Shown piece by piece: positions 8,635-64,000 of a DNA stretch of 64,000 bases. This DNA comes from an uncultured virus (IMG/VR IMGVR_UViG_3300034356_003109) (taxonomy: Duplodnaviria > Heunggongvirae > Uroviricota > Caudoviricetes): IMG/VR virus record IMGVR_UViG_3300034356_003109; one strand, 5' to 3'. Under the pieces are notes generated by a model that saw only the letters and a list, made by a program, of their open reading frames with translations, searched no databases and was not told where the DNA came from. Made by a program: the position numbers and the translations under genes. How positions within the stretch are numbered: the first letter of the stretch is position 1; each line of letters starts with the position of its first letter.

Positions 8635-8637
8635 AAA

Positions 8638-9595: not shown

Positions 9596-9752
9596 ATATT
9601 GAAATTAGTTTTTCGAGTTCGTCACAGACGGTTTTAATATCTGCGGTTAATTGGCTAGGTTGGATTCCGACTTCATCCATCGTGCGGTCATCTTCTCCGG
9701 TACGCCATTTATTGTATGCGCGAAGACGTTCTATAGATTGTTCAATCATGAG

Positions 9753-14038: not shown

Positions 14039-14049
14039 ATATTATAACT

Positions 14050-46634: not shown

Positions 46635-46643
46635 GCTACATAC

Positions 46644-46671
46644 ACTTTAGCAAAAGACTAAAACTTGTCAA
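46644..46671 (-). promoter_or_regulatory. sigma70-like promoter, near-leaderless
   Basis: TTGACA-16-TAAAGT, 9 nt before the ATG. Confidence 0.65.
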
Positions 46672-48792: not shown

Positions 48793-50281
48793 CGTTATCT
48801 TTAATTACATTTGCATTGGCACCGAGAGCGTCCACTATATCTCTGTAATCACCTTTTTCTGAAACACAGAAGTTAGCGATCTCAAGATTAACAAAATTCT
48901 TTTTAAGAGTACCGTCTGCGAGCTTTACTGGATTAATAGCTCCTGCAATATCTTTGCCAAGATGGCGAGCTTTCACGTTGATAAACTTATGAGTTCCGAA
49001 GCTGACTTCGTTCTGTAATTCATCAGATGTTTTCTGTCTTAGAATAAACATGTGAGATGAGAATTGAGTAATACGATCAGAAAGAGAAACAATGCTTTCG
49101 TCATCAGTTATACTTGATGAATTTTTGTTCGTGACAATACCTGCGCGATTAGACTGTACAGAAGTCATCATTGATATACATGGTCCTTTGTCGCTTACTA
49201 TATCTTTCTGAATGCAGCGTTTATATTTATCGACCATTTCTCCAACAAGTTGCCATTCTGTTTTATTACCTCCGCTTTCGCTTGTAGTTTTAATATAATC
49301 AAAACTAAAAATCATAGGATTTCCGCGACCTATCTTGGAGTAGTAGAATCTTTTTAAAACGCTGATCTGAGCATCAACGCTCATTCCGCCTACATTATAA
49401 TAATATAAATGCTTGTAGCGTTTATTGATGGTGTTCCATACTGCTCTAACATTATCTACAACTTCTGCGCCAGCCTTTCGCCAGTTGCCGCTTTCTAGTA
49501 GATACATTGGAACTTTAGACATTGCAGCGCATTGTCTAAAAATGAGTTCTTCTTTGCTCATCTCTCCATTATCAAAATGAAGAACTGGAACTTCGTATTG
49601 TTCAGATACTTTTGTAGTGAAATCTAAACAGAATTGAGTTTTACCTACGCCTGAACGAGCTACAATAACTGTGATATTACCCGGTCTCAAAAGAGAGCCG
49701 TACATATCTTGAATTTTAGGATGAGGCCCAGCAAATCCAAATTCTGTAACTGGATTGTTTCCTCGCTCTTCAATAAGAGCTTCCATTTCAGAAAAGATGT
49801 TTTCTGGCTGATCGCTGCCAGTTTCGTACAAATTGATCTGATCATTATAAAGCTTATCAGCGGTCTCGATAATGACGTTGTAATCAGAAGATGGAGATAT
49901 TGACTTCATCTTCTTGTTTATTTCTGCTCCACACATCGCTATTTCGCGGCGTATAGTGTATTTCTTTAATTCTTTAGCTACGCTAATAATTGATTCTGGA
50001 GATAGCTTTTTAAGAGATAGTGATTCAATATAATCTGATGGATTAATATTATCTTCGAAAGTTACTCCAAAGTTCTTTACTCTTTGAGAAATAACTACAT
50101 CATCAATTTTTTCTCCGTTATCGATTGCTTGACGAAGCACGCAAAAGATAGTTCTATTAATTTTGGAACTTTCGCTCCAAAAGTCTTTTTCAGTTATAAA
50201 AACAGCGACATCTGAATATCGTTCTGGATATTTAATCAATCCAGCAAGCAACTGAGTCTCTAAATCATACGAATAAATCAT
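48767..50281 (-). CDS. dnaB: replicative DNA helicase (DnaB-like)
   Basis: ARSGVGKT, NGEM, FDYIK, Q.NR, KARH. Confidence 0.9.
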   Translation of the reverse strand: MIYSYDLETQLLAGLIKYPERYSDVAVFITEKDFWSESSKINRTIFCVLRQAIDNGEKIDDVVISQRVKNFGVTFEDNINPSDYIESLSLKKLSPESIISVAKELKKYTIRREIAMCGAEINKKMKSISPSSDYNVIIETADKLYNDQINLYETGSDQPENIFSEMEALIEERGNNPVTEFGFAGPHPKIQDMYGSLLRPGNITVIVARSGVGKTQFCLDFTTKVSEQYEVPVLHFDNGEMSKEELIFRQCAAMSKVPMYLLESGNWRKAGAEVVDNVRAVWNTINKRYKHLYYYNVGGMSVDAQISVLKRFYYSKIGRGNPMIFSFDYIKTTSESGGNKTEWQLVGEMVDKYKRCIQKDIVSDKGPCISMMTSVQSNRAGIVTNKNSSSITDDESIVSLSDRITQFSSHMFILRQKTSDELQNEVSFGTHKFINVKARHLGKDIAGAINPVKLADGTLKKNFVNLEIANFCVSEKGDYRDIVDALGANANVIKDNDDDVPNLH

Positions 50282-50296
50282 GCCAACCGCACATTA

Positions 50297-50557
50297 TCAC
50301 TCTTCATCGGTGATGTCAATCGAATCTTGACTATTGTTCACTTCGTTTAAATATTTTTCGAGAGCTTTGACGAGTCCCATTTCAACGATTGGGTTGGAGA
50401 CTTTGGTATAAATCATTGGGCATCCATCTTGAGAGACGTAAGCCACTATAAATCCTTTGGAGGATTCATCGGAACCAGTAAACTCATAGAGTTTATTAAA
50501 ATAGTTTTCAGGAATTTTAAACTGTTTAAAATTCTCTGATTGTGAATCTCTCTTCAT
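50297..50557 (-). CDS. hypothetical protein
   Basis: Packed ORF preceded by GTGTAA. Confidence 0.65.
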   Translation of the reverse strand: MKRDSQSENFKQFKIPENYFNKLYEFTGSDESSKGFIVAYVSQDGCPMIYTKVSNPIVEMGLVKALEKYLNEVNNSQDSIDITDEE

Positions 50558-50558
50558 A

Positions 50559-50972
50559 TTATAATGTTACACCTTGACTCTCGAAAAGCTCTTTATTTAT
50601 AGTATCATTTTCAAATATAGTTACAAGTGTAATTTTATTAAGTTCGCAAAAACGCTCTTTTTTCTTATCTCTATTGAGTTGATGAAGAAAATTCATTCTA
50701 TTTGTATGGAAGAACTTAACAAATCCAGTATGTTGTCTGCCTTGAACTTCTATAGCTATCTTTTTATTAGCGTTATAAAAGTCCAAGGTAAGACGAGTTC
50801 CAACTATTGGAAACTCTTCAAACACAATATTTTGTTGCCAATAGTTGCTTAAAAATTTCTTAGCTTCTGTTTGAAACTTACTACGACTATTCGCGCTCCA
50901 ATCAATTAAATAATTGCGAGCGTTCTTGCAACGTCTTTTTTTATTACTCAGTGATAGAAATTCCATCGCCAA
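50559..50972 (-). CDS. Vsr/DUF559-like endonuclease
   Basis: EE, LDFY, AIEVQG.QH, RD..K..FC. Confidence 0.75.
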   Translation of the reverse strand: MAMEFLSLSNKKRRCKNARNYLIDWSANSRSKFQTEAKKFLSNYWQQNIVFEEFPIVGTRLTLDFYNANKKIAIEVQGRQHTGFVKFFHTNRMNFLHQLNRDKKKERFCELNKITLVTIFENDTINKELFESQGVTL

Positions 50973-52122
50973 AATTTAATAAGTTTTCACTGATGTATTT
51001 AAAGAAAAACGATTTCAACTTTTCGTTGTTGTTGACCATCTGTTCAAATTTAGCAGACCCTTGAATCTGAGCAGGAAAGTCTGTGAACCCAGCTTCTTTT
51101 AGAATATTCAGAAACTCTTCGTCGAAACTAATCCAAGCTCCCTTTTTAATGGCGATCTCCCACATAGTTAGAAAGTCAAAGATTTCCTTTTCGATCCAAT
51201 TTGACGTTCCATTCTTTCTTCCATACTTAATAGGATAACGAATAGTACAGTTAGTTCTTTCATTTGGCGACTTTTTAACTATAATTTTTACAAAATGACC
51301 TAGATAAGGATTCTTTTGTTCGTCATAAGAAGCGGTGGGATCTTCAAGAATCAAATCACCCTTGAAGCGAGAATCAAATTCAAAAATCCAATTAGCAAAA
51401 TGTAGTAAAGCGTTTCCGCCTGTAGCTGTAGTTTGGCGAATTGGAGCCTTGCTATAAGGATCGAGTTTGATATCAGCGCGAACTTGAGAAACGAATACCG
51501 CAACATGACCGCGTTTTTGCAACGCAATGGACATGCGCTTCATTAGATCGGCGGCAATAACTGCGCCACCGGCAACTTTTTGAGATTCTTCAAAAGTCTT
51601 TTCTAAATCACCTTTACGAATCAAGCCATCGACAGAATCGAGTAAAAAGAAATATTGAATCTTTTCATCGTTTTTTCCGACTAGTTCTCGCATTGAATCA
51701 AATACGGTTTCATGAATATTAGATTCAAATACAAAACATGTGCCTTCCACCCACTCTTCATCATTAAATACGAATTTAACTCCAGAACGAGTGATCATCT
51801 CCTTGCTCAATCGCCCTTCGGCTTTGATATAAAAGCCTTTACGCTTCTTAGGTTGATCTAAGAAGTTCTTCATGAACTGAAGCGCACAGCTAGTTTTGCC
51901 GCCTTCATTGATGCCGCAGAAACGATGCAGCCCAGTACCAATGCCGCCATTTAAAAAGTAATCAAGAAGAAGGCTTCCGCTAGAAATTTTATACTCTATA
52001 CTCTCTTCAAAATTATAATGCGAATCTTTATTGTTCTTCAAGAAACTTTTTAGTTGATCTTGAGAAGTGATTATTTTGCCGCTTTCTGTTTCTACTTTTA
52101 CTTCTTTTATTTTCTTAGTCAT
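50944..52122 (-). CDS. recA: RecA/UvsX-like recombinase
   Basis: SSGS..LD..L.GG, G.NEGGKT, LDSV, SQVR, TGGNAL.H, KGAW. Confidence 0.88.
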   Translation of the reverse strand: MTKKIKEVKVETESGKIITSQDQLKSFLKNNKDSHYNFEESIEYKISSGSLLLDYFLNGGIGTGLHRFCGINEGGKTSCALQFMKNFLDQPKKRKGFYIKAEGRLSKEMITRSGVKFVFNDEEWVEGTCFVFESNIHETVFDSMRELVGKNDEKIQYFFLLDSVDGLIRKGDLEKTFEESQKVAGGAVIAADLMKRMSIALQKRGHVAVFVSQVRADIKLDPYSKAPIRQTTATGGNALLHFANWIFEFDSRFKGDLILEDPTASYDEQKNPYLGHFVKIIVKKSPNERTNCTIRYPIKYGRKNGTSNWIEKEIFDFLTMWEIAIKKGAWISFDEEFLNILKEAGFTDFPAQIQGSAKFEQMVNNNEKLKSFFFKYISENLLNFGDGISITE

Positions 52123-52439
52123 TTTAAAAAGTCTTTAACTGTCTTAGGTTTTATACTAATATTGTAGTCTTGTCCAGTCTTTTCGCCAATCTGAACTTCT
52201 GTATTTTTGAATTCAGGTTGAAAAATATATTTCTTATATTTATCTGCAATGCCGTTTGCGTCCTCTCCTGCATATAAAGTCAAACAATTGACTTTAACTA
52301 CGACAAGCTGTTCCCAGAATTTTAAATCAGGAAACTTCTTTAGTAGAGAATTTAATATTCTAAACTGTTTTCCCCAAAATGAAACAGGCACTTTTTGAGG
52401 AATATGCAAAAGCTTTCTTAGCAACTCTCTTTTATTCAT
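52119..52439 (-). CDS. hypothetical protein
   Basis: Start moved to MNKRELL, after TTGACA-16-TACTCT. Confidence 0.65.
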   Translation of the reverse strand: MNKRELLRKLLHIPQKVPVSFWGKQFRILNSLLKKFPDLKFWEQLVVVKVNCLTLYAGEDANGIADKYKKYIFQPEFKNTEVQIGEKTGQDYNISIKPKTVKDFLK

Positions 52440-52477
52440 CCTCGATAGAGTAGCATGAAAACCAGAGATGTCAACAG

Positions 52478-52505
52478 CAAAAAACCGCTGGTTTCCCAGC
52501 GGTTT
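52478..52505 (-). terminator. intrinsic terminator
   Basis: AAACCGCTGG-GAAA-CCAGCGGTTTTTT. Confidence 0.75.
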
Positions 52506-52524
52506 GTTTTGATTATTTTCTTTA

Positions 52525-53055
52525 TTAAGCTTTCGGATTGAAACCAGCACTCTGAAGATCAGGATTTTTAATAGCAGATTTTTGCTGTTGCAATTTTAGT
52601 TTTTCGTCTATACTTAAGCCTTCGATGGCTGCATCTGGAGTAATATTTCCTGATGGAGCGGCAGGGGTTTCTGGAAAAACGGCTACTTGAGCAGCTTCAG
52701 ACTTTTCAGCTTCTGGTGATTCGCCAGCTTCTTTCTTGCCTTCGTCGTTTAATTTGCCTTCTTTTTGCATCTTTTTTAGAATAGCTTTTTGAAGTGCTGG
52801 AGGTAGGGTTTTTTGTTTTTCTGTCAACTGACCAGCCATTTCAGTAAGCATCGAGCGATTCTTCATATATGACATGCCGCACATATATTTAGCATCACTT
52901 GTACTCATTCCGGCAGTGTTGATCAAAGATTCGTCTTTGAGCATACACTCGCTCATATATTCGCTATGCATTTCAGCTTCATCTTCCTCCATTATGTTAG
53001 AGATGGAGATTTCAGCTATGAGGTTTTTTGTATCGAATTTTATATTTGATTTCAT
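52525..53055 (-). CDS. hypothetical protein (possible virion/internal protein)
   Basis: LTEKQKTLPPALQKAI motif, acidic linkers. Confidence 0.65.
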   Translation of the reverse strand: MKSNIKFDTKNLIAEISISNIMEEDEAEMHSEYMSECMLKDESLINTAGMSTSDAKYMCGMSYMKNRSMLTEMAGQLTEKQKTLPPALQKAILKKMQKEGKLNDEGKKEAGESPEAEKSEAAQVAVFPETPAAPSGNITPDAAIEGLSIDEKLKLQQQKSAIKNPDLQSAGFNPKA

Positions 53056-53056
53056 G

Positions 53057-53917
53057 TTATTTATTACCTTCTAGGATTTTTATTTGATCTATTGTTTTTG
53101 TTAAAATATCACCTTTTTTGAAATTAGCTCCATCGTTGATAACTTCGTAAGCAATTATTTTACCCATGTCATCGGGAAGATCTTTAATTTCTTTAATGAT
53201 TCCTTCGCTATTATAATGTTTGCATGAAGCGTTGGTATTCAGAATTCTCATTCCAGTTTCAATTATGTTTTTATCTTCTTTTCCTTTTTGAGAATATACA
53301 AGATAATTATAAACAGCAAATAAATAATCCTCCATTAAAGTAATTTTGCTTTGAACCCAAGGTTCAATCGCTTCAGACATCTTCGGATTTGCATTAAGTT
53401 TATCGAGCAAGTCTTTAGAATAATCTGAAATATAAGCCAATTGCGCGATTGCCATTTCAGAAGCATCTTCGTTTATATCTTCGGATTCAGTTTCTATTTC
53501 TTCAGCGATTTCTTCAGCTTGAGCTAGATGAGGAGCTAATTTTAAAAGATCAGATTCTTCCCACAAGGTAATGCCATCCCATTGATGAACAACATCATCG
53601 ACTCCACCTTTAGAAGTATAATCAGTTACAGACTTCTTTGATTCCCACATTTTACATGACCAATATCTAGCTTTCCAACGAGGACCGGGGTTTGTATCGC
53701 ATTGATGTCTAGCGCGAAAACTCTTTCTACGAGCGGGATCGTCGCGTTTGATCTCCATATTTGGATCGCCAAAATTAACTTTTACAATATTGCCTTTCTC
53801 GTTTTTGACGTAAACAGAAAACTTCTTTGGCCCTTTGGACGTTCTAAAAGGTTTATTTAAAGTTTTCTTGTCTTTTGACGCTCGTATTTCGTTGCTAAAA
53901 TTTACCGATATGTTCAT
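53057..53917 (-). CDS. multidomain conserved phage protein
   Basis: Basic N-domain LNKPFR..KKFSVYV..VNFGD..RRKSFRARH.C..YWSC; second module WVQSKIT...Y. Confidence 0.7.
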   Translation of the reverse strand: MNISVNFSNEIRASKDKKTLNKPFRTSKGPKKFSVYVKNEKGNIVKVNFGDPNMEIKRDDPARRKSFRARHQCDTNPGPRWKARYWSCKMWESKKSVTDYTSKGGVDDVVHQWDGITLWEESDLLKLAPHLAQAEEIAEEIETESEDINEDASEMAIAQLAYISDYSKDLLDKLNANPKMSEAIEPWVQSKITLMEDYLFAVYNYLVYSQKGKEDKNIIETGMRILNTNASCKHYNSEGIIKEIKDLPDDMGKIIAYEVINDGANFKKGDILTKTIDQIKILEGNK

Positions 53918-54062
53918 TTTTTAATCTTCTATATTAACGAAATTAAGATTTAATTCATCTTCATTTACACCAAATTGCTTAAGATCAGAAAGAGATTCAT
54001 CAAAATCAGCCTCTTCAAAATCATTAAATGAATAAATGTCTACTATTTTGTCGTTCATGTTA

Positions 54063-54530
54063 TTAGTTAGCTATATCTTGATCTGCGCGACGATAAGCGT
54101 CTTTGACTTTACCACCACTTTGCATTCTTAAAAATGTATTCACTCTTGCCATACTCCAAGCTGCTCTTGATTGTCCAGGTCTATGACTAGAACTAAACGC
54201 ACCTGAGCCTCTACGATACACCTTCTTTAATTGTCCAAGAGTTACTTTCTTAGAATGTTTAGCGTTGTGATTTTTTACTTTTTCTTTTAAAGCGTTAGTT
54301 ACCTTTTGACTAAAAGTGATTTCAGCTTTACTTACTAATTGTTTTTCATTTTTTTTGTTTAATGCTTCTTTAGCTTTCTCTTTAGCATCTGGGCTTGTAC
54401 CAGCAGATCCCGGTTTATTTACGCTAGAGCCTTTCTTACGTTCATCTGGCTTCGCTGGAGTTTGGGCCGAACTTTTTGGGCCTTGTCTTTTTTTTGCAAT
54501 AAGCTCAGAAAAATCTAATATTAAATTCAT
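54063..54530 (-). CDS. basic conserved viral protein (DUF5824-like)
   Basis: LKKVYRRG.GA..SSHRPG....W..ARVN.F. Confidence 0.65.
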   Translation of the reverse strand: MNLILDFSELIAKKRQGPKSSAQTPAKPDERKKGSSVNKPGSAGTSPDAKEKAKEALNKKNEKQLVSKAEITFSQKVTNALKEKVKNHNAKHSKKVTLGQLKKVYRRGSGAFSSSHRPGQSRAAWSMARVNTFLRMQSGGKVKDAYRRADQDIAN

Positions 54531-54570
54531 ATTTAAAATTACACTAATTTAACAATGTGTAGAAAAAAGT

Positions 54571-54598
54571 AAAGCCGCTTTTTAGAGCGGCTTTTTTT
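54571..54598. terminator. intrinsic terminator
   Basis: AAAGCCGCT/AGCGGCTTT stem with T/A tracts. Confidence 0.7.
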
Positions 54599-54613
54599 GT
54601 TTTTAATTGACTA

Positions 54614-54727
54614 TTACTTCTTCTTTACTGGAGGCTTGGCTGGAACTGGAGGCTTTCCAGTGGGCTTTGCAACCTTAGCGGAAGCGGTGGCGGTCTTAGT
54701 CATTGTCTTTGCTGTAGTCTTGCTCAT
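54614..54727 (-). CDS. 37-aa Lys/Ala/Pro/Thr-rich histone-H1-like peptide
   Basis: Read by hand: MSKTTAKTMTKTATASAKVAKPTGKPPVPAKPPVKKK; all Lys codons are AAG; followed by a terminator. Confidence 0.65.
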   Translation of the reverse strand: MSKTTAKTMTKTATASAKVAKPTGKPPVPAKPPVKKK

Positions 54728-54768
54728 ATTTGTATATGTGGTTTATACTATATTAAATTAATTTTTTT

Positions 54769-55446
54769 TCAAGCTTTTATCTTAAAAAGAACGTGTTTTT
54801 TGAGGACTTCTTCTTTCTGTAAAAACAAACCTCTGTTTTTAGCAAAATTTAAATAATAAAAATTGGCAATTTTGTTTTCGTTGTATTCTTGTGTCTTATA
54901 TTTTTTGATTTCGTTTCTAGAAATTTGATAATAGTAATAACAGTCTTCTTTATTTTTGCTCGATATCTTATGTTTTATAATATCTCTTTGCCAAGTGTCT
55001 AAATCTTCATAAACGAAAGAAGAACAAATAAAAGTTCCGTTTTTGTTTAACATTGATAGGATTTTGTCTATAGTTTCAGTTTGATTTTTGACATAACCTA
55101 TCATTTCAATACAAAATATATAATCAAATTTTTCATTTGTTTCGAATTTTTCAATGTCAATGCAATAACTTTTTATATTTTGTGAGTAAAGTAGTTGTTT
55201 TTCACTTATGTCTATACCATGCAATTCACAATTTTTATAATTTTTTGATAATTGATTTAATAAAAATCCATTTCCGCATCCAATATCTAAAACTTTAGAA
55301 TTACTTTTTACATCAGCAAAAGAAAAAAGCCTTATAAAGTGTTGACTGATAGACTGATCAAGTACAACAGCATTATAAGGCTGATAATTATTTTTTATTA
55401 CAGCGGCGTTTTTATCGTAAAAATTTTTGACCGCTTCGATTGACAT
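54769..55446 (-). CDS. class I SAM-dependent methyltransferase
   Basis: VLDIGCGNG, GIDIS, FDYI, L.K.G. Confidence 0.85.
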   Translation of the reverse strand: MSIEAVKNFYDKNAAVIKNNYQPYNAVVLDQSISQHFIRLFSFADVKSNSKVLDIGCGNGFLLNQLSKNYKNCELHGIDISEKQLLYSQNIKSYCIDIEKFETNEKFDYIFCIEMIGYVKNQTETIDKILSMLNKNGTFICSSFVYEDLDTWQRDIIKHKISSKNKEDCYYYYQISRNEIKKYKTQEYNENKIANFYYLNFAKNRGLFLQKEEVLKKHVLFKIKA

Positions 55447-55447
55447 T

Positions 55448-57430
55448 TTATCTAATTGGACATGCGCCACCGGCACATTCAGCCATATCTAGCATTTCAA
55501 TGTTTCCTGATAGGATGGTAATTAAAGGCTTAACTTTAGCGTTGGCCGCTAAATACGCGGCTTCGTCAATTTCTTGATATGGAGCTTGTTTGAATCCATG
55601 ATCCTTGAACAAAAGAAAGCTAACGCTCTTGATATTATTTTCGTAATTATCTTTTAGCCAAACTTTAAGAGACTCAAGTTCTTCTGGTTTGTAATAAGCA
55701 GTTACAGAAACAGCGTTATCTGACCAAATAGTTTGCAGCTTCTTAACCATATCAAGTTGCTTGATGACATCCATATCTTTTGTAAGGATAGATCCTTCAG
55801 GAGTCTTGCATGGGAAATACACAACAACGGTATCACGATTCTCAGTTCCATCAAAATTAATAATGAACTCTACATGATAACCCATGTCTTTGCATGTTTG
55901 AACGAGACTGTCAGAGCTAGACATGCGTACTGTACGCATATAATATTCACTAAAAGCTGGATGAACGCCGGGAGTAGCTCCACCAAGTAAACTTAATGTT
56001 CCGCTGGGTTTGATGGTTGTAAGCTTAATGCTTTCAGGCCAACCACGATACTTACTCCAAGACTTATCAAAGTTGCGTAGAGCAACATAACAATCATCAA
56101 GCCAATCAAGCTTATCAAGAGACTGGCACACACCAGTAACGCCAAGGCCAAGGCGCATGTTCTTGTGGACAATACGATTAGTTTCTTCGTGTATGAAAGG
56201 TAACGCAGCAATAGCCTTTTGAGTTTTATAAAGAAGTTTTGCACAGTCAATTAATTCATCTTTAGAGGTAATGTTGTTTAAATAAAGTTCAGAAAGATTG
56301 CAGCACTCATAATTTGCAAGGCTGATTTCAGCGCATGGATTTGTCATTTCACAATTATCTACATCTGTTGGATATAGAAGATTTTCAGAAATTGGCCCAT
56401 CTTTAATGCGTCCAAATTTTTGAGAAAGAGGAAGATTAAAGAATCCATAAGGTTCACCATTTGCATAACCTGAATCTTTATTTATTTCGTATCCATTTTT
56501 CCAAACCTCTTCAAGAACGTGATCATAGCTATCCGCATAGATGGTGTTGTTGCTCATTGCTCGCCAATTTGGGACGTTGCTAGAACCCCAATTCTTGGCG
56601 CGAAGATAAAGAATATCATCAGGATCGCCTAGAGCGATTTCCGCACTGCGCCGCACATTGCCAGCGACAACAACACTGCCAATAATATTGCAGATATCCA
56701 ACACATCAATCGAGCGAAGTTTTTTGCCTTCGCGAGCTTGGAATATCTTTGTGATTTTATCGATTCCGTCAATAAGGATTTGTGGACCACTAGCTTTTCC
56801 GCCAAAGCCCTTGATTGGTTCGCCGTAACCTCTGATGAGGATAGTTGAATACGAAAACGATTTACCTGTAACGTAAAAAGCATCCAGAACTTTAGAAAGT
56901 AGATTAACCCAACCTTCGCGTTTATCTGGAACAATATAATCAGCGTCTTTAGTTGCTTCATGAATAACATTTACACCTTTCTTGATCTTTGGGAGTTCGT
57001 GGACATCTTCACGACGAATACTATAACCTACACCGCCACCAAGCATTAGGTTCTCAAAGAGGAACAAAAAAGCCTTTGGCTCGCGCATTGCTGTTGCCCA
57101 GCAATTAAGAAGAGAATTCGCTCCAAAACGATCTACAGTTGAAGTGCCGAGTTGCCATAGCATTCGACCTGCAAAGTTACACTTTAAATTAAAAACGTAA
57201 TCATAAATGCGTTCTGCTTCTTCTTTTGTATATTGTGCGCCAATTTTCTGTGCGCCATTGATACAACGTTCTACTGTTTCATTCCATTCTTCTGTCGTTC
57301 CATCTTCTTTTTGACGAGCATAAGTCCTTTTGTAGACAATATATCCAAGACCGCTAAAACCCCAGTTGGGTTGCTTGTTTTTATATTGCGCCAAAAAAGA
57401 AGGAGACAGAATATTTAAATTATCGCTCAT
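55448..57430 (-). CDS. nrdJ: class II (adenosylcobalamin) ribonucleotide reductase
   Basis: YKRTYAR, LLNC, GNVRRSA, TNPCAE, CNL, KPSGT, C-terminal CAGGACPIR. Confidence 0.92.
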   Translation of the reverse strand: MSDNLNILSPSFLAQYKNKQPNWGFSGLGYIVYKRTYARQKEDGTTEEWNETVERCINGAQKIGAQYTKEEAERIYDYVFNLKCNFAGRMLWQLGTSTVDRFGANSLLNCWATAMREPKAFLFLFENLMLGGGVGYSIRREDVHELPKIKKGVNVIHEATKDADYIVPDKREGWVNLLSKVLDAFYVTGKSFSYSTILIRGYGEPIKGFGGKASGPQILIDGIDKITKIFQAREGKKLRSIDVLDICNIIGSVVVAGNVRRSAEIALGDPDDILYLRAKNWGSSNVPNWRAMSNNTIYADSYDHVLEEVWKNGYEINKDSGYANGEPYGFFNLPLSQKFGRIKDGPISENLLYPTDVDNCEMTNPCAEISLANYECCNLSELYLNNITSKDELIDCAKLLYKTQKAIAALPFIHEETNRIVHKNMRLGLGVTGVCQSLDKLDWLDDCYVALRNFDKSWSKYRGWPESIKLTTIKPSGTLSLLGGATPGVHPAFSEYYMRTVRMSSSDSLVQTCKDMGYHVEFIINFDGTENRDTVVVYFPCKTPEGSILTKDMDVIKQLDMVKKLQTIWSDNAVSVTAYYKPEELESLKVWLKDNYENNIKSVSFLLFKDHGFKQAPYQEIDEAAYLAANAKVKPLITILSGNIEMLDMAECAGGACPIR

Positions 57431-57448
57431 GGTAAAAAGTATTATACA

Positions 57449-58504
57449 CTAGATTTTAAAAATCTCTATGTCGTACTTTACCATACGTTCTACGAGGTTG
57501 TCAAAGGAAATTTTCGGATTCCAACCTAATTCTTTTCTGGCTGGAGTCGAGTCTCCCAAAAGAAGCTCAACTTCGGCGGGCCTGTAAAATTTAGGATTAA
57601 TTTTAACTAAAATAGACGATTGAATTTCATTTTTAATGGCGTATTCAGTAGACACGCTCATCTGTTCTTCTTGTCCGCATCCATGCCAAACACCTTCGAT
57701 CCCGGCGCAAACAAAAGATTTATTAATGAATTCCCTAATTGTGTGTGTTTCGTTGCTTGAGAGAACGTAATCTTTTGGTTTTTCTTGATTCATTATTTTC
57801 CAAACGCCATCGACAAAATCTTCAGAATCCGACCAGTCTCTTTGAGCGTCTATGTTTCCGAGTTCAATTGGAGAGAATGGTTGATTGTTTTTAATAGCAT
57901 GGTGTATGCGAGCAACACCTTTGCTGATTTTTCTAGTTACAAATTCTTCTCCGCGTTTAGTTCCTTCGTGATTAAAAAGAATGCCATGCACAGCGTATAG
58001 ATTATAAGATTCACGATAAACTTTTACTAAATGGCGGGCAGCCGCTTTGCTTGCTCCGTATGGGCTTCTTGGTTTAACTGGATGAATAATGTCTTGTGGG
58101 CTGTATTGAACATCTCCAAACTCTTCACTAGATCCAGCAGAATAAAAACGACACTTTGGTTGAAAACGACGAATAGCTTCAAGGCATCTTGCTACACCAG
58201 TAGCGTTGACATCGAAAGTTTGCAAAGGTATTTCCCAACTGCATCCAACAAAACTTTGTGCGCCAAAATTAATAAAATAGTCTGGTTGAATATCTCTTAC
58301 AATATTGTCTAAACTTATAGAATCAGCAAGATCGCCATATACAAATTTAAATCTAGTATTTTTAATGAATGCATTACAATTTATAAAATTAGGATTAGAG
58401 GTTCTTCGCATCATGCCATAAATTTGAGCGTCAGTATTCTTAAGCAAATATTCGCACATGTTTGCGCCATCTTGTCCTAAAATTCCAGTTATAATTATTT
58501 TCAT
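57449..58504 (-). CDS. gmd: GDP-mannose 4,6-dehydratase
   Basis: ITGILGQDG, AQSFV..S, SSEEFG, PRSPYGASK, LFNHE, FVTRKI, RDW, RPAEV. Confidence 0.95.
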   Translation of the reverse strand: MKIIITGILGQDGANMCEYLLKNTDAQIYGMMRRTSNPNFINCNAFIKNTRFKFVYGDLADSISLDNIVRDIQPDYFINFGAQSFVGCSWEIPLQTFDVNATGVARCLEAIRRFQPKCRFYSAGSSEEFGDVQYSPQDIIHPVKPRSPYGASKAAARHLVKVYRESYNLYAVHGILFNHEGTKRGEEFVTRKISKGVARIHHAIKNNQPFSPIELGNIDAQRDWSDSEDFVDGVWKIMNQEKPKDYVLSSNETHTIREFINKSFVCAGIEGVWHGCGQEEQMSVSTEYAIKNEIQSSILVKINPKFYRPAEVELLLGDSTPARKELGWNPKISFDNLVERMVKYDIEIFKI

Positions 58505-58944
58505 ATATTTTGGTATTTTATAACGTAATCAGTGCATATTCCATAACATATTGATAGATCACCATCAAAACCTAGTTCTGGTAGTACGCAGATACTATTG
58601 GTAAATAATTTTTTATTTGGATAAGTCCAAATATATTTCTTACTTGTTAAAATCCAATCTTCAGTAGTATGCCAAAATACATTAAAATTATAATTTTTAT
58701 CATTAAGCAATTTATAAAATGCTTCGCCGTTTTTAGCATGTAACCAAAATTGAGAATCAAATAAAAAATTATATTTTATTTCGTATGTAGGATTATCATG
58801 CCCTAAATACCATTTATCATTTATATGCCAAATATCAATTTCAACATCGTATCCTATACCTAATGCATCATTGATATAATCTGGATGATTTTCTTTATCT
58901 TCATTAGGCCCATCTACATTACCTCTATGAGAAATAAATTTCAT
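58501..58944 (-). CDS. GDPD/PLC-like phosphodiesterase-fold protein
   Basis: ISHRGN, EN, VEIDIW, LGHD, HAKN, GICTD. Confidence 0.7.
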   Translation of the reverse strand: MKFISHRGNVDGPNEDKENHPDYINDALGIGYDVEIDIWHINDKWYLGHDNPTYEIKYNFLFDSQFWLHAKNGEAFYKLLNDKNYNFNVFWHTTEDWILTSKKYIWTYPNKKLFTNSICVLPELGFDGDLSICYGICTDYVIKYQNI

Positions 58945-58962
58945 AACTTTTTAGTCTGTTAA

Positions 58963-60156
58963 TTAAATTTTTCCCCATTTTTCAATAGCTTCATAATATT
59001 CATTTGAATATTTTTTAGTAATAGATTGACTCATTGCTTTTGCGCCAGCCGTTGTTCCGTTAGGATGAGAAGTTATAGCTCCGCCAACATTAGCCATCCA
59101 ATTGTTATGGCCGATTATAGAGCTGATATGATCAACTAAACCAGGATGCATTCCGCAACTTAAAGCTGGTACAGCATTCAATTGATTCATATCAGAAATA
59201 ATATTCTTCATGTTTTCTTCGTCAGTTTGCAAATATCCACCGATCATTCCAACATGAAGAGTCCCACATCCAGACATCGCGGCTAACTTGAATAGTAGTC
59301 TAGAATCTATTCTATATTGATGAGATTCAAAGTTAAGAACTCTATCTCCACTCTTCTGGAAATGAATCAATAAAGGTAAATTCAATTCTCGTAAAGACTT
59401 ATAAACACCCATTCCACAATGAAAATTAGTATGAATTCCATTTCCACCTAAATCATGAACAAGTTTAGCTTTGTTTAAAATAAAAGCAGGATCAGAATGA
59501 AGAGAAACGCAATAAAAAGTTTTGTATCCTCCGTCTCTAATTAAATTAGAGACTAGGTCAATTCTTTTTTCAAAACCACAGTGAGCGGCTGAACATAAAA
59601 TTTCGTCTTCTTTTATGAAATTGCATCCGCCATCTAGTAATTTTTTTACTAGTTCTAAATGTTTTTCTGCTGAAAGCCCTATCTTGGGCTTTGTTATTCC
59701 GCCAAAAATAACTTGATTATCTGGAATTCCGCAATGATTTCTTATTTCTTTAAGCCCTATTTTAGGGCCAAGAAAACAGTTTTTCATTTTAGGCGTGAAT
59801 TCAATGTCTAATAGATGGCAAGCTTGAACTTCATCAATGTCACATTGACCGCCCATAACCTGAACTAAAAGATGAGAAATACCATCTTCTTTAAAATTGA
59901 TATTGCTTTCTGGAAAAGCTACGCAAACAATTCCTTCTTTTTTCTTCTTAAGTTCTATTTCATCGCCAAGAATCAAACAACTATGTTTCTCAAACATCTC
60001 TTCTGTTTCCATTTCGGCTCTGCATTTAGGATTACCAATTGATTGACCAACAGCTAAATTAAATGCTGCGTCAGCTACTGAGGTTTTTCCTTGTAAGAAA
60101 TATTTTACAATAAAATAGTCTTCTTTATTAACGGATGTTACGAATAAGTTTTTCAT
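58963..60156 (-). CDS. RuBisCO-like protein (form IV)
   Basis: GPKIG, GGITKPKIGLS, GGCNFIKEDE, LHVG, PALSCGMH, VGGAI.SHP.G..AGA.A. Confidence 0.9.
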   Translation of the reverse strand: MKNLFVTSVNKEDYFIVKYFLQGKTSVADAAFNLAVGQSIGNPKCRAEMETEEMFEKHSCLILGDEIELKKKKEGIVCVAFPESNINFKEDGISHLLVQVMGGQCDIDEVQACHLLDIEFTPKMKNCFLGPKIGLKEIRNHCGIPDNQVIFGGITKPKIGLSAEKHLELVKKLLDGGCNFIKEDEILCSAAHCGFEKRIDLVSNLIRDGGYKTFYCVSLHSDPAFILNKAKLVHDLGGNGIHTNFHCGMGVYKSLRELNLPLLIHFQKSGDRVLNFESHQYRIDSRLLFKLAAMSGCGTLHVGMIGGYLQTDEENMKNIISDMNQLNAVPALSCGMHPGLVDHISSIIGHNNWMANVGGAITSHPNGTTAGAKAMSQSITKKYSNEYYEAIEKWGKI

Positions 60157-60871
60157 TGTTTGAGTGTTTTAAATATGTTTGTAAATCTTCTGGAGTTCCT
60201 ATCGGAAAATGTTCATTAAAAAAATAATGTCCTATTTTCTTTCCCTTATTTATTAAATAATTATATGATGGCGCTATATAAAATTCATTTAAAGTTCTAT
60301 CGTTTTTTTCAAACATTTCTTCACAAGAAGAAAATAAATCAGCAGCTTTTTTCCAGTAATGAAAACCGTTTGAAGCAAATTCACTAAGAACCACTTTTTC
60401 TTTAACCTCAGTGACATCGCAAAAATCGTTTAATTTTACAAAACTGTTTTTTGGAGATCTAGAAAAAAAGGTTCCAAGCAAACCGTCGTAATCGTATTTG
60501 TGAGCGTATTGTCTAAATTTTTCAACATTGTAGTTACATATAACTTGATCGCAATTTGTTAATATTAATTCTTCGTTCAGATTTATATTGTTTTTTGCTT
60601 CATATGAAGTTTTTGCGGGTCCATCTTTCAATCCATCAATAATATAGAATTCAACACGACAAGGAAGTTGAAGATTAATTATTTTTTTAGAAATAGAGAA
60701 TTTTTCTTCATGCTCTTTCAAGATGCATAAAATAAATTTATCGCTTTTTTCTTGATTCAAATTCTTAATAACAAGTTCAATCATGTAGCTTCCGTTGACA
60801 TTTATCAATGGCTTGGGTACTGGTGAATTGAATCTTTTGCCCAGTCCAGCGCATGGTATTAAATAATTCAT
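60128..60871 (-). CDS. sugar-phosphate nucleotidyltransferase
   Basis: IPCAGLGKRF...PKPLI, GPA, NCDQ, EK, EFYIAP.YN, IGTPEDL. Confidence 0.85.
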   Translation of the reverse strand: MNYLIPCAGLGKRFNSPVPKPLINVNGSYMIELVIKNLNQEKSDKFILCILKEHEEKFSISKKIINLQLPCRVEFYIIDGLKDGPAKTSYEAKNNINLNEELILTNCDQVICNYNVEKFRQYAHKYDYDGLLGTFFSRSPKNSFVKLNDFCDVTEVKEKVVLSEFASNGFHYWKKAADLFSSCEEMFEKNDRTLNEFYIAPSYNYLINKGKKIGHYFFNEHFPIGTPEDLQTYLKHSNNEKLIRNIR

Positions 60872-61197
60872 GATTTAAGTTGAAAACATCTCTTGTCTTG
60901 CGCAGATGGGGTTTTTACGCAAATAATATTACAATCTTCAAGGAAAGTTGGATCAGAAATTTCATAAGGTTCTAATATAAAAATATCGCCTTCTTCTAGA
61001 ATTTTATCTTGCATAATCATTTTTCCGCTAATTAAAAGATTTATTTCTTTAACTATCGAGTGGTAATGATATTCGCAAATTTCATTTCTTTTGTGATTTT
61101 TGAATGAGACTTCAAAATCTTTTGTTTTATAAGCAGTTGGTTCAAAATTACCTACAAACCATCCGCCTTTCATGTCTGATATTTTATACGTTTGCAT
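60868..61197 (-). CDS. cupin-fold protein
   Basis: GWFVGNF.P, HYH...E, G.M, GDIF.L.P.E. Confidence 0.75.
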   Translation of the reverse strand: MQTYKISDMKGGWFVGNFEPTAYKTKDFEVSFKNHKRNEICEYHYHSIVKEINLLISGKMIMQDKILEEGDIFILEPYEISDPTFLEDCNIICVKTPSAQDKRCFQLKS

Positions 61198-61912
61198 ATT
61201 TATTATTAATAAATACTAAATCTTCTTCTATTCCGAGTTCATTTGATATAGAGCTTACTAATTGAAAATCTTGTTTTTCTAGAAATTCAATTAATTCATT
61301 TTTTATTGTTGACTTGTCATATATTTTTGAAAGTCCAACTTCTGTATGAATAGCTTTAATATTTTTAAGATGAAAATCAAAACTCTTCAAGACTTCTAAT
61401 TCGGCACCTTGAACATCCATCCATATTAAATCAATTTGATTTATTGAATTATTTCTTAAAAAAGAATCCCCTCTTATACATTCCACTTCAATTTCTTCTT
61501 GTATATAAGATTTGCCATAATAATGATTATTATTTGCTTTATATAAGGAACTGGCTCCTATATTGCCATTAATGACTTTATGAAATTTAATATTGCCATC
61601 GATTAATCCAATTGCTTTTTCATAAAAAATTATATTATTTCTATCTTTTATATTTTTTTTGCACCATTCTGCTGTTTCTGGAATAGGTTCGAAACAATGA
61701 ATTTTAGAATTCGGAAACCAATCTGACAATTCTAAACTTTGACAAGCGTCTCTAGATCCAATATCTAAAACATGATTTATGTCTTCTAAATCTATTTTAT
61801 TTTCAATTTTTTTTATAAAATCAAATGTGTAGCTTAATACAGAACCTTCCCAGTTATTATATTTTCTTTCTTTATTTGAGGAAAATGCATTTTTATTATA
61901 TATAGTTTTCAT
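61184..61912 (-). CDS. FkbM-family methyltransferase
   Basis: LDIGS, FEP, ASS, IDLIWMDVQGAEL.VL, I.TEV. Confidence 0.88.
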   Translation of the reverse strand: MKTIYNKNAFSSNKERKYNNWEGSVLSYTFDFIKKIENKIDLEDINHVLDIGSRDACQSLELSDWFPNSKIHCFEPIPETAEWCKKNIKDRNNIIFYEKAIGLIDGNIKFHKVINGNIGASSLYKANNNHYYGKSYIQEEIEVECIRGDSFLRNNSINQIDLIWMDVQGAELEVLKSFDFHLKNIKAIHTEVGLSKIYDKSTIKNELIEFLEKQDFQLVSSISNELGIEEDLVFINNKYANV

Positions 61913-62505
61913 ATTATATGATCGATTGCTGATTTATCAGCTTTGTATGATGATAAAAATTTATTGTACTTTGTCCAAAAAATGTCATTTTCATCATTTA
62001 TTCTATTTAAAAAAAATGTAAATTCTTCATTTTTTAATTGCATTTTATAAAAATTTTCAAGTATCATCTGTTCTGCAAATGCGTAGTTCATTTTTTCGTT
62101 TTTACTCCATAGTTTTATCATTAAATCTATATCGCCAGCCATTAAATAATCGCAAATATACCCTCCTTCATGGTTATGCCAAAAGAAAAAATTAATTTTA
62201 TGGGTAAAAATATCAAGTAATTTATTTATATTTTTCGCTACATAATCACTTCTTATTTTTAAAACATTTTCAAATCCCAACTCTTTAGCTTTTAATAATC
62301 CATTCTCAGTTGTTATTTGTTGATAAAATAAATTTCCTACTCCAGAGTTTCGAGGTTTTTCATTAAAAATAACGTTATCATTTTTTAAATATTTGTTTTC
62401 ATCCCCTTTCCATGTGGAAAAAATGCAATTTTGATTTTCCGTGGATTTTTTAATTTCTTCCACTTTTACAGATGGACCTTGGATTACAATACACCATTTT
62501 TTCAT
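61909..62505 (-). CDS. WavE-like lipopolysaccharide synthesis protein
   Basis: IVIQGP, STW, N...Q..TT..GL, KIRSD, D...G, AEQ. Confidence 0.65.
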   Translation of the reverse strand: MKKWCIVIQGPSVKVEEIKKSTENQNCIFSTWKGDENKYLKNDNVIFNEKPRNSGVGNLFYQQITTENGLLKAKELGFENVLKIRSDYVAKNINKLLDIFTHKINFFFWHNHEGGYICDYLMAGDIDLMIKLWSKNEKMNYAFAEQMILENFYKMQLKNEEFTFFLNRINDENDIFWTKYNKFLSSYKADKSAIDHII

Positions 62506-63227
62506 TAAATTTTATCTCTTAGGCTGTTTGATATCTTTTTTATTTTTTCTAATTCAATTTTGTATTCTGAAAAGTTCCATTTTCCTTTTACTATTGCTGT
62601 GGCAATATAAGGCCATATATTAGAATCATAATGTCCGCCTCTTTTATTTTCATTATCGAAATGAATTAATCCTTGAATTACATTTTTTTGTGATATTTCT
62701 TGGCTTTTAATTTCTAATTCCCAAATTGAAGATTTGGGGAATAATTTTAAAAAATCAATAAATTTTTGCTTTTTCCATATCGTGGGTTGAACAGCAAAAA
62801 AATCTGAAGATCCATTTGTTATTTCATATAAACAATCTATTTCTTTGATTTTTTGTACTTTTAAATTTCCAGTTCTGCATAGTCTAATAAATGAATATTT
62901 ACTGTTAGAAAGAAAATTTATATAATCATTTATTTTTTTAAAATCCGGTTTGCTGTATAAAAACATATCTTCATGTTGATAAAATATATATTCGCTATTT
63001 ATCTTTTCTAAACATTGAATAAGTCTTTCTGAATAAATCAAAGAATCATCATATATAATATGTTGATTTTTTTCATTAAATTTTTTATTAGCAAGAATAC
63101 AAATTTCATCTTTATCAATTCCATATCTTTCTTGTTCTTCTAAGAATATTTCTAATACATCAAAGTATTCTGAATTTGTATAAACTATATCTTTAATTAT
63201 TGATTGCATGTTCATACCCATACACAC
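62505..63227 (-). CDS. putative glycosyltransferase
   Basis: Y.D, YS.RL..CL, HEDMFL, QPTIW, WELE; glycan cluster context. Confidence 0.55.
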   Translation of the reverse strand: MCMGMNMQSIIKDIVYTNSEYFDVLEIFLEEQERYGIDKDEICILANKKFNEKNQHIIYDDSLIYSERLIQCLEKINSEYIFYQHEDMFLYSKPDFKKINDYINFLSNSKYSFIRLCRTGNLKVQKIKEIDCLYEITNGSSDFFAVQPTIWKKQKFIDFLKLFPKSSIWELEIKSQEISQKNVIQGLIHFDNENKRGGHYDSNIWPYIATAIVKGKWNFSEYKIELEKIKKISNSLRDKI

Positions 63228-63904
63228 GTTCTATTTGTAAAAAATCCATTCGCATAATAATCTCTTTTAAAACCTTCAGATTGTAACCAAGGATTTAATG
63301 TTGATCCTATATCTAAGTAAATGTTTTTTTTGTTAGATTCGTAAAGTTGATGAGCTAATAAATTTCCAAAAGGTCCAGCGCAAAAAAGAAATAGTTTATT
63401 TGTAAGATTTTTTTGTTTTATTTCTTCAATTAATTTATAATTATTGACCCATGCGCTAAATCCTATAGGATAAAACTGTTCAATCTTAAACGGTAGATTA
63501 TCTATTTTTGATTTTTCATTCGCTATTAAATGGATATCATAATTTTTATATTCTTTAACAAATGTTTCTTTATAAATTTCATAATTTGAATTTACAAATA
63601 CATTTGCAAAAGTTAAATGATCATAATCTTGACCAGAAAAATTAATCATTTTTTGAGATTCGCCACCTTGACAACAAGGGCAAGATACGCCCACATAATA
63701 GTTGGGATCTTTATATTGGAAAGATTCAATTAGTTTATTTTTGAAAAAAGATGGAGTCAATGGTGTTTTTTCAAATTCTCTATTATTTAAATTAACATCA
63801 TTTATAATAGCCCATTCGCCGTCAGCATATTTAGAAAAAGAAAAAGGTGATCCTTTCTTAAAAAGATCAAATATTCTATAAATTTCTGATTCAAAGTTTT
63901 TCAT
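63212..63904 (-). CDS. GT-D fold (DUF1792-like) glycosyltransferase
   Basis: FSKYADGE, LFCAGP, LDIGS. Confidence 0.7.
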   Translation of the reverse strand: MKNFESEIYRIFDLFKKGSPFSFSKYADGEWAIINDVNLNNREFEKTPLTPSFFKNKLIESFQYKDPNYYVGVSCPCCQGGESQKMINFSGQDYDHLTFANVFVNSNYEIYKETFVKEYKNYDIHLIANEKSKIDNLPFKIEQFYPIGFSAWVNNYKLIEEIKQKNLTNKLFLFCAGPFGNLLAHQLYESNKKNIYLDIGSTLNPWLQSEGFKRDYYANGFFTNRTCVWV

Positions 63905-63998
63905 TACTGAGTATTGTTAAAATCTTTTTTGCACTTTTACCGTTTCCGTATGGACATTTCTTAGATATTAGAAAATTATTATTGATTTTCAAAAAATG
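63891..63998 (-). CDS. C-terminal end of a probable UDP-GlcNAc 2-epimerase (partial, window edge)
   Basis: Read by hand: ...KCPYGNGKSAKKILTIL..., matching the PYGDG.A..I C-terminal motif. Confidence 0.5.
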   Translation of the reverse strand, partial: HFLKINNNFLISKKCPYGNGKSAKKILTILSNEKL

Positions 63999-64000
63999 GT

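Follow-up and report, generated by a model that had tools for sequence, protein, structure and literature searches.

The stretch of DNA analyzed here (the window; 64,000 nucleotides of the uncultured virus record IMGVR_UViG_3300034356_003109) matches a segment of a 70.9-kb IMG/VR contig (L001) at 100% identity and encodes a RuBisCO-like protein (RLP) of 397 amino acids (aa). The RLP gene lies within a run of nine minus-strand open reading frames (ORFs) that extends from position 63904 down to position 57449 and that, in the order of transcription, encodes a 230-aa protein, a 240-aa protein, a 198-aa protein, an FkbM-family methyltransferase, a 109-aa cupin, a nucleotidyltransferase (NT), the RLP, a 147-aa shortened relative of GDPD enzymes (from here on, mini-GDPD), and the dehydratase Gmd; a gene for a class II ribonucleotide reductase (RNR) comes next (Table 1). 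Neighboring ORFs overlap by 1–29 bases or are separated by gaps of 18 bases, and we conclude that this run of glycan and RLP genes is a translationally coupled operon. On the parent contig, the operon extends upstream past the end of the window (positions 3668–6266 of L001), where it includes genes for a UDP-GlcNAc 2-epimerase, a GT2-like protein, and a GT1 protein. Comparison with other loci revealed that the RLP and the NT, usually together with the metal-binding cupin and the mini-GDPD, are the core of a gene cassette.

The initial annotation of this DNA had read RuBisCO barrel motifs in the RLP and had noted that several carboxylase residues were missing. Both readings were confirmed, the former by Pfam and by alignments and the latter by alignment with a form I enzyme. 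The RLP matched the Pfam family RuBisCO_large (PF00016) over residues 143–379 (E 3e-28; 99.4 bits, cut-off 30.1), with a weak match to RuBisCO_large_N (E 0.0031; 18.1 bits, below the cut-off of 20.7), and a phmmer search of the PDB returned 99 distinct RuBisCO or RLP sequences at E <= 0.001. The best of these, RuBisCO 8dht (6.7e-28) and MtnW 2oek (9.9e-27), are about equally distant. Residues were mapped in a MAFFT alignment of the RLP with one form I reference, using motif assignments that we take to follow spinach numbering. The KPK motif is retained as K156/K158 and the KDDE motif appears as KEDE (K182, E183, D184, and E185), such that the carbamyl-lysine/metal triad (K201, D203, and E204) and K175 are kept as K182, D184, E185, and K156. 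The P1 phosphate site is likewise retained, with SGG as SCG and GGG as GGA, and H327 corresponds to H301, a match visible solely in the alignment with 8dht. The carboxylase residues are replaced: E60 by Q38, N123 by G103, H294/R295 by Q267/K268, and K334 by Y308. All of these retained and replaced states are invariant in 23 clade members that share 46–65% identity with the window RLP, which speaks for a functional enzyme whose reaction has changed rather than for a gene in decay. Further, position 298 is a nearly invariant Asp (D271) in the clade, which, together with the R295K replacement, suggests that the second phosphate site has been lost and that the substrate would be a monophosphate. 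Judged by its sequence, the RLP is an intact, non-carboxylating relative of RuBisCO.

We wanted to place the RLP among the characterized members of the superfamily. It scored below all NCBIfam equivalog cut-offs, with 150.9 bits against 497 for the form III family, 125.1 against 409 and 105.3 against 513.6 for the two MtnW families (NF007095 and TIGR03332, respectively), and 94.3 against 700 for OiaX. A quick maximum-likelihood tree of 40 rows (15 viral sequences, 16 from genome assemblies, and nine references; SH-aLRT support only) was built with references taken from annotated plasmids and Azospirillum, a set without form II, form III, IV-Photo, and DeepYkr sequences. In this tree, the 31 RLPs of cassette loci form a single clade (SH-aLRT 98) apart from the MtnW, OiaX-group, and form I references; a 30-member core (SH-aLRT 97) includes a protein from a Beckwithbacteria metagenome-assembled genome (MAG; L025), and the addition of the Azospirillum oleiclasticum protein (L035) brings the clade to 31. 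OiaX and the RLPs linked to four-carbon-acid kinases form a separate clade (SH-aLRT 99), and the two form I sequences branch at the root. The nearest reference is the sole MtnW sequence, which is sister to the cassette clade (SH-aLRT 89) with a branch length of 2.5 changes per column. This sister position leaves room for a distant kinship to the YkrW group; it may, however, be due to long-branch attraction, and the clade is not placed inside MtnW. A search at E <= 1e-10 returned 2,800 proteins, which makes this a large clade; the best 120 listed all share at least 50% identity. A grouping with MtnW or other characterized clades, which would have spoken against the initial annotation, was not seen: the RLP belongs to a clade of its own, with NCBIfam scores far below the MtnW and OiaX cut-offs.

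The phage RLP shares its fold, the carbamyl-lysine, and the metal ligands with the 2,3-diketo-5-methylthiopentyl-1-phosphate enolase MtnW/YkrW, but it is only 27.6% identical to Bacillus MtnW. In the alignment, the column that follows the N123 position contains a lysine in MtnW, which we take to be the catalytic base of that enzyme, and Q104 in the cassette clade. A true mtn operon, examined for comparison, surrounds the MtnW gene with other mtn genes; the phage RLP has no such surroundings, and Pfam searches of the window operon revealed none of mtnA, mtnK, mtnX, and mtnB. The OiaX/OiaT-type D-apionate RLPs and the kinase-linked RLPs are likewise members of the RuBisCO superfamily that act on sugar-acid phosphates without fixing carbon, but their hallmark neighbor, a four-carbon acid sugar kinase, was not among the matches listed for the neighbors of the cassettes that we scanned.

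The identity of the cassette partners was assessed from profiles and structure models. The NT matched Pfam NTP_transferase (PF00483; E 2.5e-6, 27.7 bits against a cut-off of 21.2) and phrog_3980 (E 9.8e-47), and the residues G9, G11, and R13 of its N-terminal G-x-G-x-R nucleotide loop are invariant or nearly so. Its family profile matched 4evw, the structure of an uncharacterized NDP-sugar (nucleoside diphosphate-sugar) pyrophosphorylase, at E 8.1e-35, followed by RmlA- and ManC-type enzymes (~45 bits), inositol-1-phosphate cytidylyltransferase (36 bits), and IspD (26 bits). This ranking suggests that the NT resembles sugar-1-phosphate NTs more closely than polyol-phosphate cytidylyltransferases. 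In the cupin, H35, H44, H46, and E51 of the metal-binding H-x-H...E motif are invariant. Its structure model (pLDDT 93.5) gave 156 Foldseek matches at E <= 0.001, the listed ones all being cupins, and its fold neighbors include the minimal phosphomannose isomerases of Thermococcus (7zvy/7zvm) and KdgF. Pfam returned no match for the 109-aa protein itself; Cupin_2 matched only the fusion protein P0125 described below (E 0.00087). The profile of the mini-GDPD matched the GDPD structure 3i10 (E 6.3e-6), and VIA-align, run with the model (pLDDT 97.5) against 48,161 chains, gave Z-scores of 10.8–7.8 for the 22 top chains with 133–143 of the 147 residues aligned; 20 of these 22 chains are titled GDPD, GlpQ, or PLD. 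The residues H6, R7, E35, D37, H49, and K71 are invariant and retain the HR...E.D...H...K catalytic pattern. No match was obtained to Pfam GDPD (PF03009) or, at E <= 0.001, in Foldseek (best E 0.012), and an Atlas look-up returned unnamed viral clusters, the nearest named cluster (GDPD in 25% of its members, score 0.85) being a lead only. GDPD/GlpQ/UgpQ enzymes and GDPD-fold phospholipases D have 220–330 residues, whereas the mini-GDPD has ~145 and is aligned across the whole barrel. By model and sequence, we conclude that it is a shortened relative of the GDPD barrel.

The initial annotation had proposed a search for RLP, NT, cupin, and GDPD-fold genes occurring together in phages and bacterial loci. 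We collected 35 loci (18 viral loci and 17 from species-representative genomes, with the duplicate or near-duplicate pairs L012/L013, L005/L017, and L009/L011) and searched them in six frames with profiles of the RLP partners, each of which matches the 64-kb window exactly once. The linkage proved to be conserved across phages and cells. The NT was found in 32 of the 35 loci, the cupin in 27, the mini-GDPD in 28, and all three partners in 24. The distance between the NT and the RLP is at most 3,626 bases in all 32 cases and at most 1,226 bases in 30 of them; two of the three NT-less loci (L016 and L033) end at the RLP, and L021 alone truly has none. The order of the genes differs between loci, which points to selection on their proximity rather than to shared descent of one arrangement. 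Further, the partners are joined in single proteins: a 352-aa NT-cupin fusion occurs in L018, and two metagenome proteins, P0125 (817 aa) and P0126 (813 aa), are RLP-NT-cupin fusions with the NT in the middle. In Azospirillum, a 706-aa ORF that had looked like an RLP-NT fusion was rejected as a spurious frame in high-GC DNA, the tblastn search and ORF listing revealing four separate genes.

Among cellular genomes, the complete Pelagibacter chromosome (L030) and three SAR11-type contigs from single cells or MAGs carry NT-RLP and the mini-GDPD without the cupin, and a Verrucomicrobiae chromosome (L034) carries RLP-NT-cupin. The cassette is also present in genomes of the candidate phyla radiation (CPR), and the locus set includes a MAG contig labeled Methanobacteriota (L028). 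In the cultured bacterium A. oleiclasticum (L035), the order is GDPD-RLP-cupin-NT, followed by CysD and CysN/C, which serve PAPS (3′-phosphoadenosine 5′-phosphosulfate) synthesis, and by a GT41-TPR glycosyltransferase. The cassette, CysD, the CysN/APS-kinase fusion, and the TPR-GT41 gene of this locus (positions 3891–11480) all lie on the same strand, and these neighbors hint at a sulfated or protein-linked glycan.

Gene context was assessed by a scan of 262 ORFs of at least 100 aa within 7 kb of the cassette at 28 loci (Pfam, E <= 1e-5; the best five families per protein). A glycosyltransferase-type match (GT1, 2, 9, 10, 11, 17, 25, Mannosyl_trans3, WavE, Bac_transf, or Wzy_C) was found at 17 of the 28 loci, a count that rises to 22 once Gmd/epimerase, FkbM, TylF, and similar sugar-tailoring genes are added. 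Cassettes in cellular genomes sit among Wzy-type, GT9, WavE, and Bac_transf genes, true WavE proteins adjoin the cassette in L019 and L020, and FkbM genes repeatedly adjoin it at other loci. Among the listed matches, families of methionine salvage, DXP reductoisomerase, AMP salvage, and four-carbon-acid kinases were all absent, which places the RLP outside a methionine-salvage or apionate context, as the initial annotation had supposed. Four recurrent neighbors (families c7 and c18 and two SAR11 proteins of 290 and 346 aa) gave no match in Pfam, PHROGs, or NCBIfam.

Several single loci have further genes near the cassette. In L004, a DHQ_synthase-like sugar-phosphate cyclase (positions 3620–4654; E 4.1e-35) is encoded 4 kb upstream of the cassette, adjacent to epimerase and Gmd genes, and represents a possible cyclitol branch. 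In L007, a minus-strand gene 2 kb from the cassette (positions 13528–14781) encodes PARP catalytic and regulatory domains (E 3.3e-15 and 2.3e-8, respectively). Three CPR loci carry a B12-binding radical SAM gene near the cassette (L020, 3166–4926; L024, 11732–13102; L025, 11675–13048) and are also rich in class I methyltransferases; the radical SAM enzymes possibly C-methylate the glycan.

Table 1. Genes of the RLP operon and other features of the window, with the match on which each assignment is based
Feature	Position	Strand	Basis
230-aa protein, GT-D-like	63212..63904	-	Pfam GT-D, E 0.0042, sub-threshold (17.3 bits, cut-off 27)
240-aa protein, family c22	62505..63227	-	NCBIfam glycosyltransferase-domain match, E 0.0038 (sub-threshold)
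198-aa protein, weakly WavE-like	61909..62505	-	BLASTP to WavE proteins of L019/L020
FkbM-family methyltransferase, 242 aa	61184..61912	-	Pfam Methyltransf_21, E 1.3e-18; TIGR01444, E 3.3e-24
Metal-binding monocupin, 109 aa	60868..61197	-	phrog_24762, E 5e-34; fold model
NT, 247 aa	60128..60871	-	Pfam NTP_transferase; overlaps the RLP start by 29 bases
RLP, 397 aa	58963..60156	-	Open ORF; Pfam RuBisCO_large
Mini-GDPD, 147 aa	58501..58944	-	phrog_34507, E 2.5e-27; GDPD-fold model
Gmd, GDP-mannose 4,6-dehydratase, 351 aa	57449..58504	-	Pfam GDP_Man_Dehyd, E 1.5e-105; last gene of the glycan run
Class II RNR	55448-57430		Pfam; downstream of Gmd
Family B DNA polymerase (three consecutive ORFs)	42368-46634	-	
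Polymerase ORF, N-terminal part	45879-46634	-	phrog_405 (N-terminal part)
Polymerase ORF, exonuclease	44917-45546	-	Polymerase exonuclease subunit
Polymerase ORF, core, 850 aa	42368-44920	-	
Lon-like ATP-dependent protease, 802 aa	39963-42371	-	phrog_4871, E 2.7e-209
Further possible glycan region	34111-38494	-	631-aa protein, glycosyltransferase phrog_2170, E 3.1e-13
"Ferredoxin" auxiliary gene, 214 aa	26549-27193	-	phrog_3704, E 4.4e-43

The remaining genes of the operon are consistent with glycan assembly to varying degrees. The neighbors named by the initial annotation as NT, cupin, GDPD fold, Gmd, and FkbM are real, each being backed by a Pfam, profile, or fold match; for the WavE-like and GT-D neighbors, matches exist, but the former is a weak BLASTP match and the latter is sub-threshold. 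The 198-aa protein is 28–31% identical over ~90 aa to the true WavE proteins of L019 and L020 (E ~1e-6 in a four-sequence database) and had zero matches in Pfam, PHROG, and NCBIfam; it is a possible glycan-assembly protein. Searches of the same three databases with the 240-aa protein were blank except for the sub-threshold match in Table 1. The family of the 240-aa protein (c22), which is conserved with the cluster, and that of the 198-aa protein (c23) each occur in four of the 18 viral loci, and homologues of Gmd (cluster c5) occur in seven.

We note that the window comes from a T4-like phage. Its phage nature is supported by genes for rIIA/rIIB, a family B DNA polymerase, a UvsX-like recombinase, a primase, a DnaB-like helicase, and a clamp loader; it also encodes thymidylate synthase and a Lon-like protease. 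Searches of 50,697 phage records by tblastn with the RLP and with the UvsX-like protein, and by megablast with window positions 44000–64000, returned no match, indicating that there is no close cultured phage relative in these records. The nearest virus record (G001; 40,138 bases, 28% complete) had no RLP match. The three polymerase ORFs, the first two of which have a 118-aa ORF between them, could reflect a frameshift, interruption by an intron or intein, or a polymerase divided between genes. The polymerase gene is also split in L009 (positions 400–2780; 355 and 438 aa), where the near-identical L011 encodes the polymerase in a single 848-aa ORF (positions 6510–9056), and the split in L009 is likely a frameshift or assembly error. 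The further possible glycan region of the window lies distant from the cassette, and its 631-aa protein is flanked by proteins of 420, 273, and 199 aa without a PHROG match.

Phage RLPs have been published before. Jaffe, Castelle, Dupont & Banfield (2019, Mol Biol Evol; PMC6389311) describe as "Form IV-like" a group of ~80 phage sequences of Myoviridae type that groups with Beckwithbacteria, is highly divergent from other RLPs, partly keeps the key residues of form IV, and has its function left open. The window RLP fits this published description, being phage-borne and in one clade with the Beckwithbacteria protein of L025. The words nucleotidyl, glycosyl, and cupin are absent from the main text of PMC6389311, and what the present analysis has beyond that main text is the conserved cassette, the fusions, and the members from SAR11, Azospirillum, and Verrucomicrobiae. 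An RLP paired with a cupin is also known: the methylthioadenosine (MTA)-isoprenoid shunt of Rhodospirillum rubrum and Rhodopseudomonas palustris uses a DeepYkr RLP (5-methylthioribulose-1-phosphate 1,3-isomerase) and a cupin-type methylsulfurylase (PMC5893883). The likeness to the cassette rests on adjacency, in that both have an RLP beside a small cupin, and the carbonyl migration that the DeepYkr RLP is described as carrying out on a keto-sugar monophosphate is the model for the mechanism proposed below. The cassette differs from the DeepYkr pair in its constant partner NT, in its glycan-assembly context, and in that neither mtnA nor mtnP was seen at the scanned loci. A further parallel is the bifunctional type II phosphomannose isomerase/GDP-mannose pyrophosphorylase (AlgA/ManC type), which combines a sugar-phosphate NT with a cupin isomerase domain. 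This arrangement recalls the L018 protein and the RLP-NT-cupin fusions, and minimal phosphomannose isomerases are among the fold neighbors of the cupin; unlike the AlgA/ManC type, however, the cupin has no Pfam MannoseP_isomer match, and the RLP stands where the classical route needs a phosphomutase. In the literature searched, which leaves most subscription journals outside, we found no link between an RLP and nucleotide-sugar synthesis and no RLP-NT(-cupin-GDPD) cassette in glycan loci. The initial annotation had known of no described pathway of this kind, and this part of its claim agrees with our search, but the phage RLP clade (PMC6389311) and an RLP-cupin pair (PMC5893883) had already been described. 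We conclude that what appears new here, by the literature searched, is the conserved cassette in glycan loci, and that the phage RLP clade and the RLP-cupin pairing elsewhere were already known.

We propose, at about an even chance of being right, that a mobile cassette comprising two to four genes produces an NDP-activated unusual sugar for glycan assembly and that the RLP serves in it as an active enzyme without carboxylase function. The similar role suggested by the initial annotation is supported in part, by the non-carboxylating active site, the absence of an mtn or apionate context, and the conserved linkage to NT, cupin, and GDPD fold; a branched product, an RLP step ahead of activation, and a glycan on the virion or host surface would be conjecture. 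In the proposed route, the Mg2+/carbamyl-lysine center (K182, D184, E185, and K156) would enolize a keto-sugar monophosphate held at the P1 site, and the outcome could be a carbonyl shift or an epimerization, as with known RLP isomerases. The cupin, being akin to minimal phosphomannose isomerases, would carry out a further aldose-ketose isomerization or epimerization, and the RmlA/ManC-like NT would activate the product by attaching a nucleotide. The activated sugar would then be used and decorated by the operon's own glycosyltransferases and methyltransferases, with the mini-GDPD probably forming or cleaving a phosphodiester on the NT side of the pathway.

Several observations weigh against this proposal. 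The cassette has no obvious kinase or mutase for the anomeric phosphate, and the cupin is missing from the four SAR11-type loci. The ORFs of the neighbor scan come from crude longest-ORF calling, and at six of the 28 loci (L012, L021, L022, L023, L027, and L034) there was no glycan-type Pfam match within 7 kb. In L021, the RLP stands alone amid genes of amino-acid metabolism (arginase, ornithine cyclodeaminase, and a permease), and in L034 a fatty-acid desaturase and an EamA transporter adjoin the cassette and there are no glycosyltransferases; these two loci are genuine exceptions. Several of the "cell" loci are probably phage DNA mis-binned into MAGs, given that L022 has a gp32-like gene and that L023 is near-identical to the viral locus L018. 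Further, the mini-GDPD is encoded by cultured Synechococcus myoviruses without an RLP (17 records) and the cupin by two RLP-less Synechococcus phages (three records), and thus neither is specific to the RLP route. In the RLP-less phages B3 (L055) and S-CAM9 (L054), the mini-GDPD gene directly follows that of a 457–461-aa NDP-sugar pyrophosphorylase, and in Bellamy (L036) and SynMITS9220M01 it lies among heptose-pathway genes (isomerase, kinase, aldolase, and NT). In the RLP-less myoviruses L036, L037, L054, and L055, the mini-GDPD is annotated as a hypothetical protein. The equivalent long proteins at RLP-bearing loci are HAD-NT fusions, and the mini-GDPD pairs with HAD-NT in RLP-less phages. 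These alternative partners would fit a common back end of NT and mini-GDPD that is served by alternative front ends, either HAD or RLP with cupin.

The order of the steps could also be different. The NT might make an ordinary NDP-sugar, after which the RLP, with its P1 site on the β-phosphate, would enolize an NDP-keto-sugar (e.g. the 4-keto-6-deoxy product of Gmd) and the cupin would act as an RmlC/FdtA-like second step. This order would accommodate the lack of a kinase or mutase in the cassette, the resemblance of the NT to ordinary sugar-1-phosphate NTs, and its position between RLP and cupin in the fusions, and Gmd or another short-chain dehydrogenase/reductase (SDR) acting as dehydratase or epimerase adjoins the cassette at many loci. 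However, we know of no member of the RuBisCO superfamily that acts on a nucleotide-linked substrate, the Gmd cluster is confined to seven of the 18 viral loci, and a cassette without a nearby SDR exists (e.g. L030), and we therefore consider activation before the RLP step unlikely. A glycan product is itself put in question if the cassette makes a non-glycan, nucleotide-linked small molecule (a precursor of phage DNA modification or a signaling or cofactor-like compound) and the glycan genes are mere neighbors in a variable island. The cassette does abut nucleotide-metabolism genes, here the class II RNR, a DUF1599 "nucleotide modification associated" protein is encoded within 7 kb in L014 and L015, and L021 and L034 are not glycan loci; against this stand the Wzy-type, GT9, WavE, and Bac_transf surroundings of the cellular cassettes, the translational coupling of the window cassette with FkbM and GT-like genes, and the glycan-type genes at 22 of the 28 scanned loci, such that a non-glycan product appears very improbable.

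Two further readings take the RLP closer to its characterized relatives. The first treats the cassette as a variant MTA-isoprenoid shunt: the RLP would act on 5-methylthio- or 5-deoxy-ribulose-1-phosphate as a 1,3-isomerase, next to a methylsulfurylase-like cupin, and the route would serve the salvage of SAM by-products or the supply of an NDP-activated 5-deoxy or 5-thio pentose. The abundance of SAM-dependent methyltransferases in the operons and the position of MtnW as nearest, long-branch reference in the tree would suit this variant, and the pairing of DeepYkr RLP and cupin is established for RPA2169/RPA2170 (PMC5893883). Among the listed matches of the 262 neighbor ORFs, however, there is no MtnA, MtnK, MtnP, or DXR family, the NT is nearer to RmlA/ManC than to IspD, and the SAR11 loci do without the cupin. 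Methyltransferases, moreover, yield S-adenosylhomocysteine and not MTA, and we regard the shunt variant as quite unlikely. Finally, the best NCBIfam and PDB sequence scores of the RLP are to form III RuBisCO, as would be expected of a true, form III-like carboxylase in nucleotide or AMP salvage; but E60, N123, H294, R295, and K334 are all replaced clade-wide, the form III score is far below its cut-off, and neither AMP phosphorylase nor R15P isomerase families are among the listed neighbor matches, which makes carboxylation scarcely credible.

Returning to the proposed synthesis of an NDP-activated sugar, a bolder version, which we offer as a long shot, is that the RLP is a "carbonyl-walking" isomerase that takes the place of the kinase or phosphomutase in ordinary nucleotide-sugar routes. 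It would move the carbonyl along a ketose phosphate from central metabolism (e.g. a pentulose 5-phosphate), reversing the reaction of the R. rubrum RLP, and so leave the phosphate placed for the cupin and the NT to yield an NDP-pentose or NDP-ketose. If true, this would be the first biosynthetic, glycan-building role of the RuBisCO fold, one that phages would share with SAR11 and CPR bacteria.

To our knowledge, the functions assigned to RLPs so far are all catabolic or salvage functions, namely methionine salvage, the MTA-isoprenoid shunt, and apionate breakdown. With an RLP clade tied, and sometimes fused, to a sugar-activating enzyme in glycan loci, the RuBisCO superfamily would gain a biosynthetic function, and such a clade would hint at a nucleotide-sugar or sugar-phosphate donor not described so far. 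This can be tested directly, as it concerns four small proteins and a cultured carrier, A. oleiclasticum. Because the RLP clade occurs in abundant aquatic lineages (SAR11, CPR bacteria, and T4-like phages), its product may be a common component of surface glycans with a bearing on phage-host recognition.

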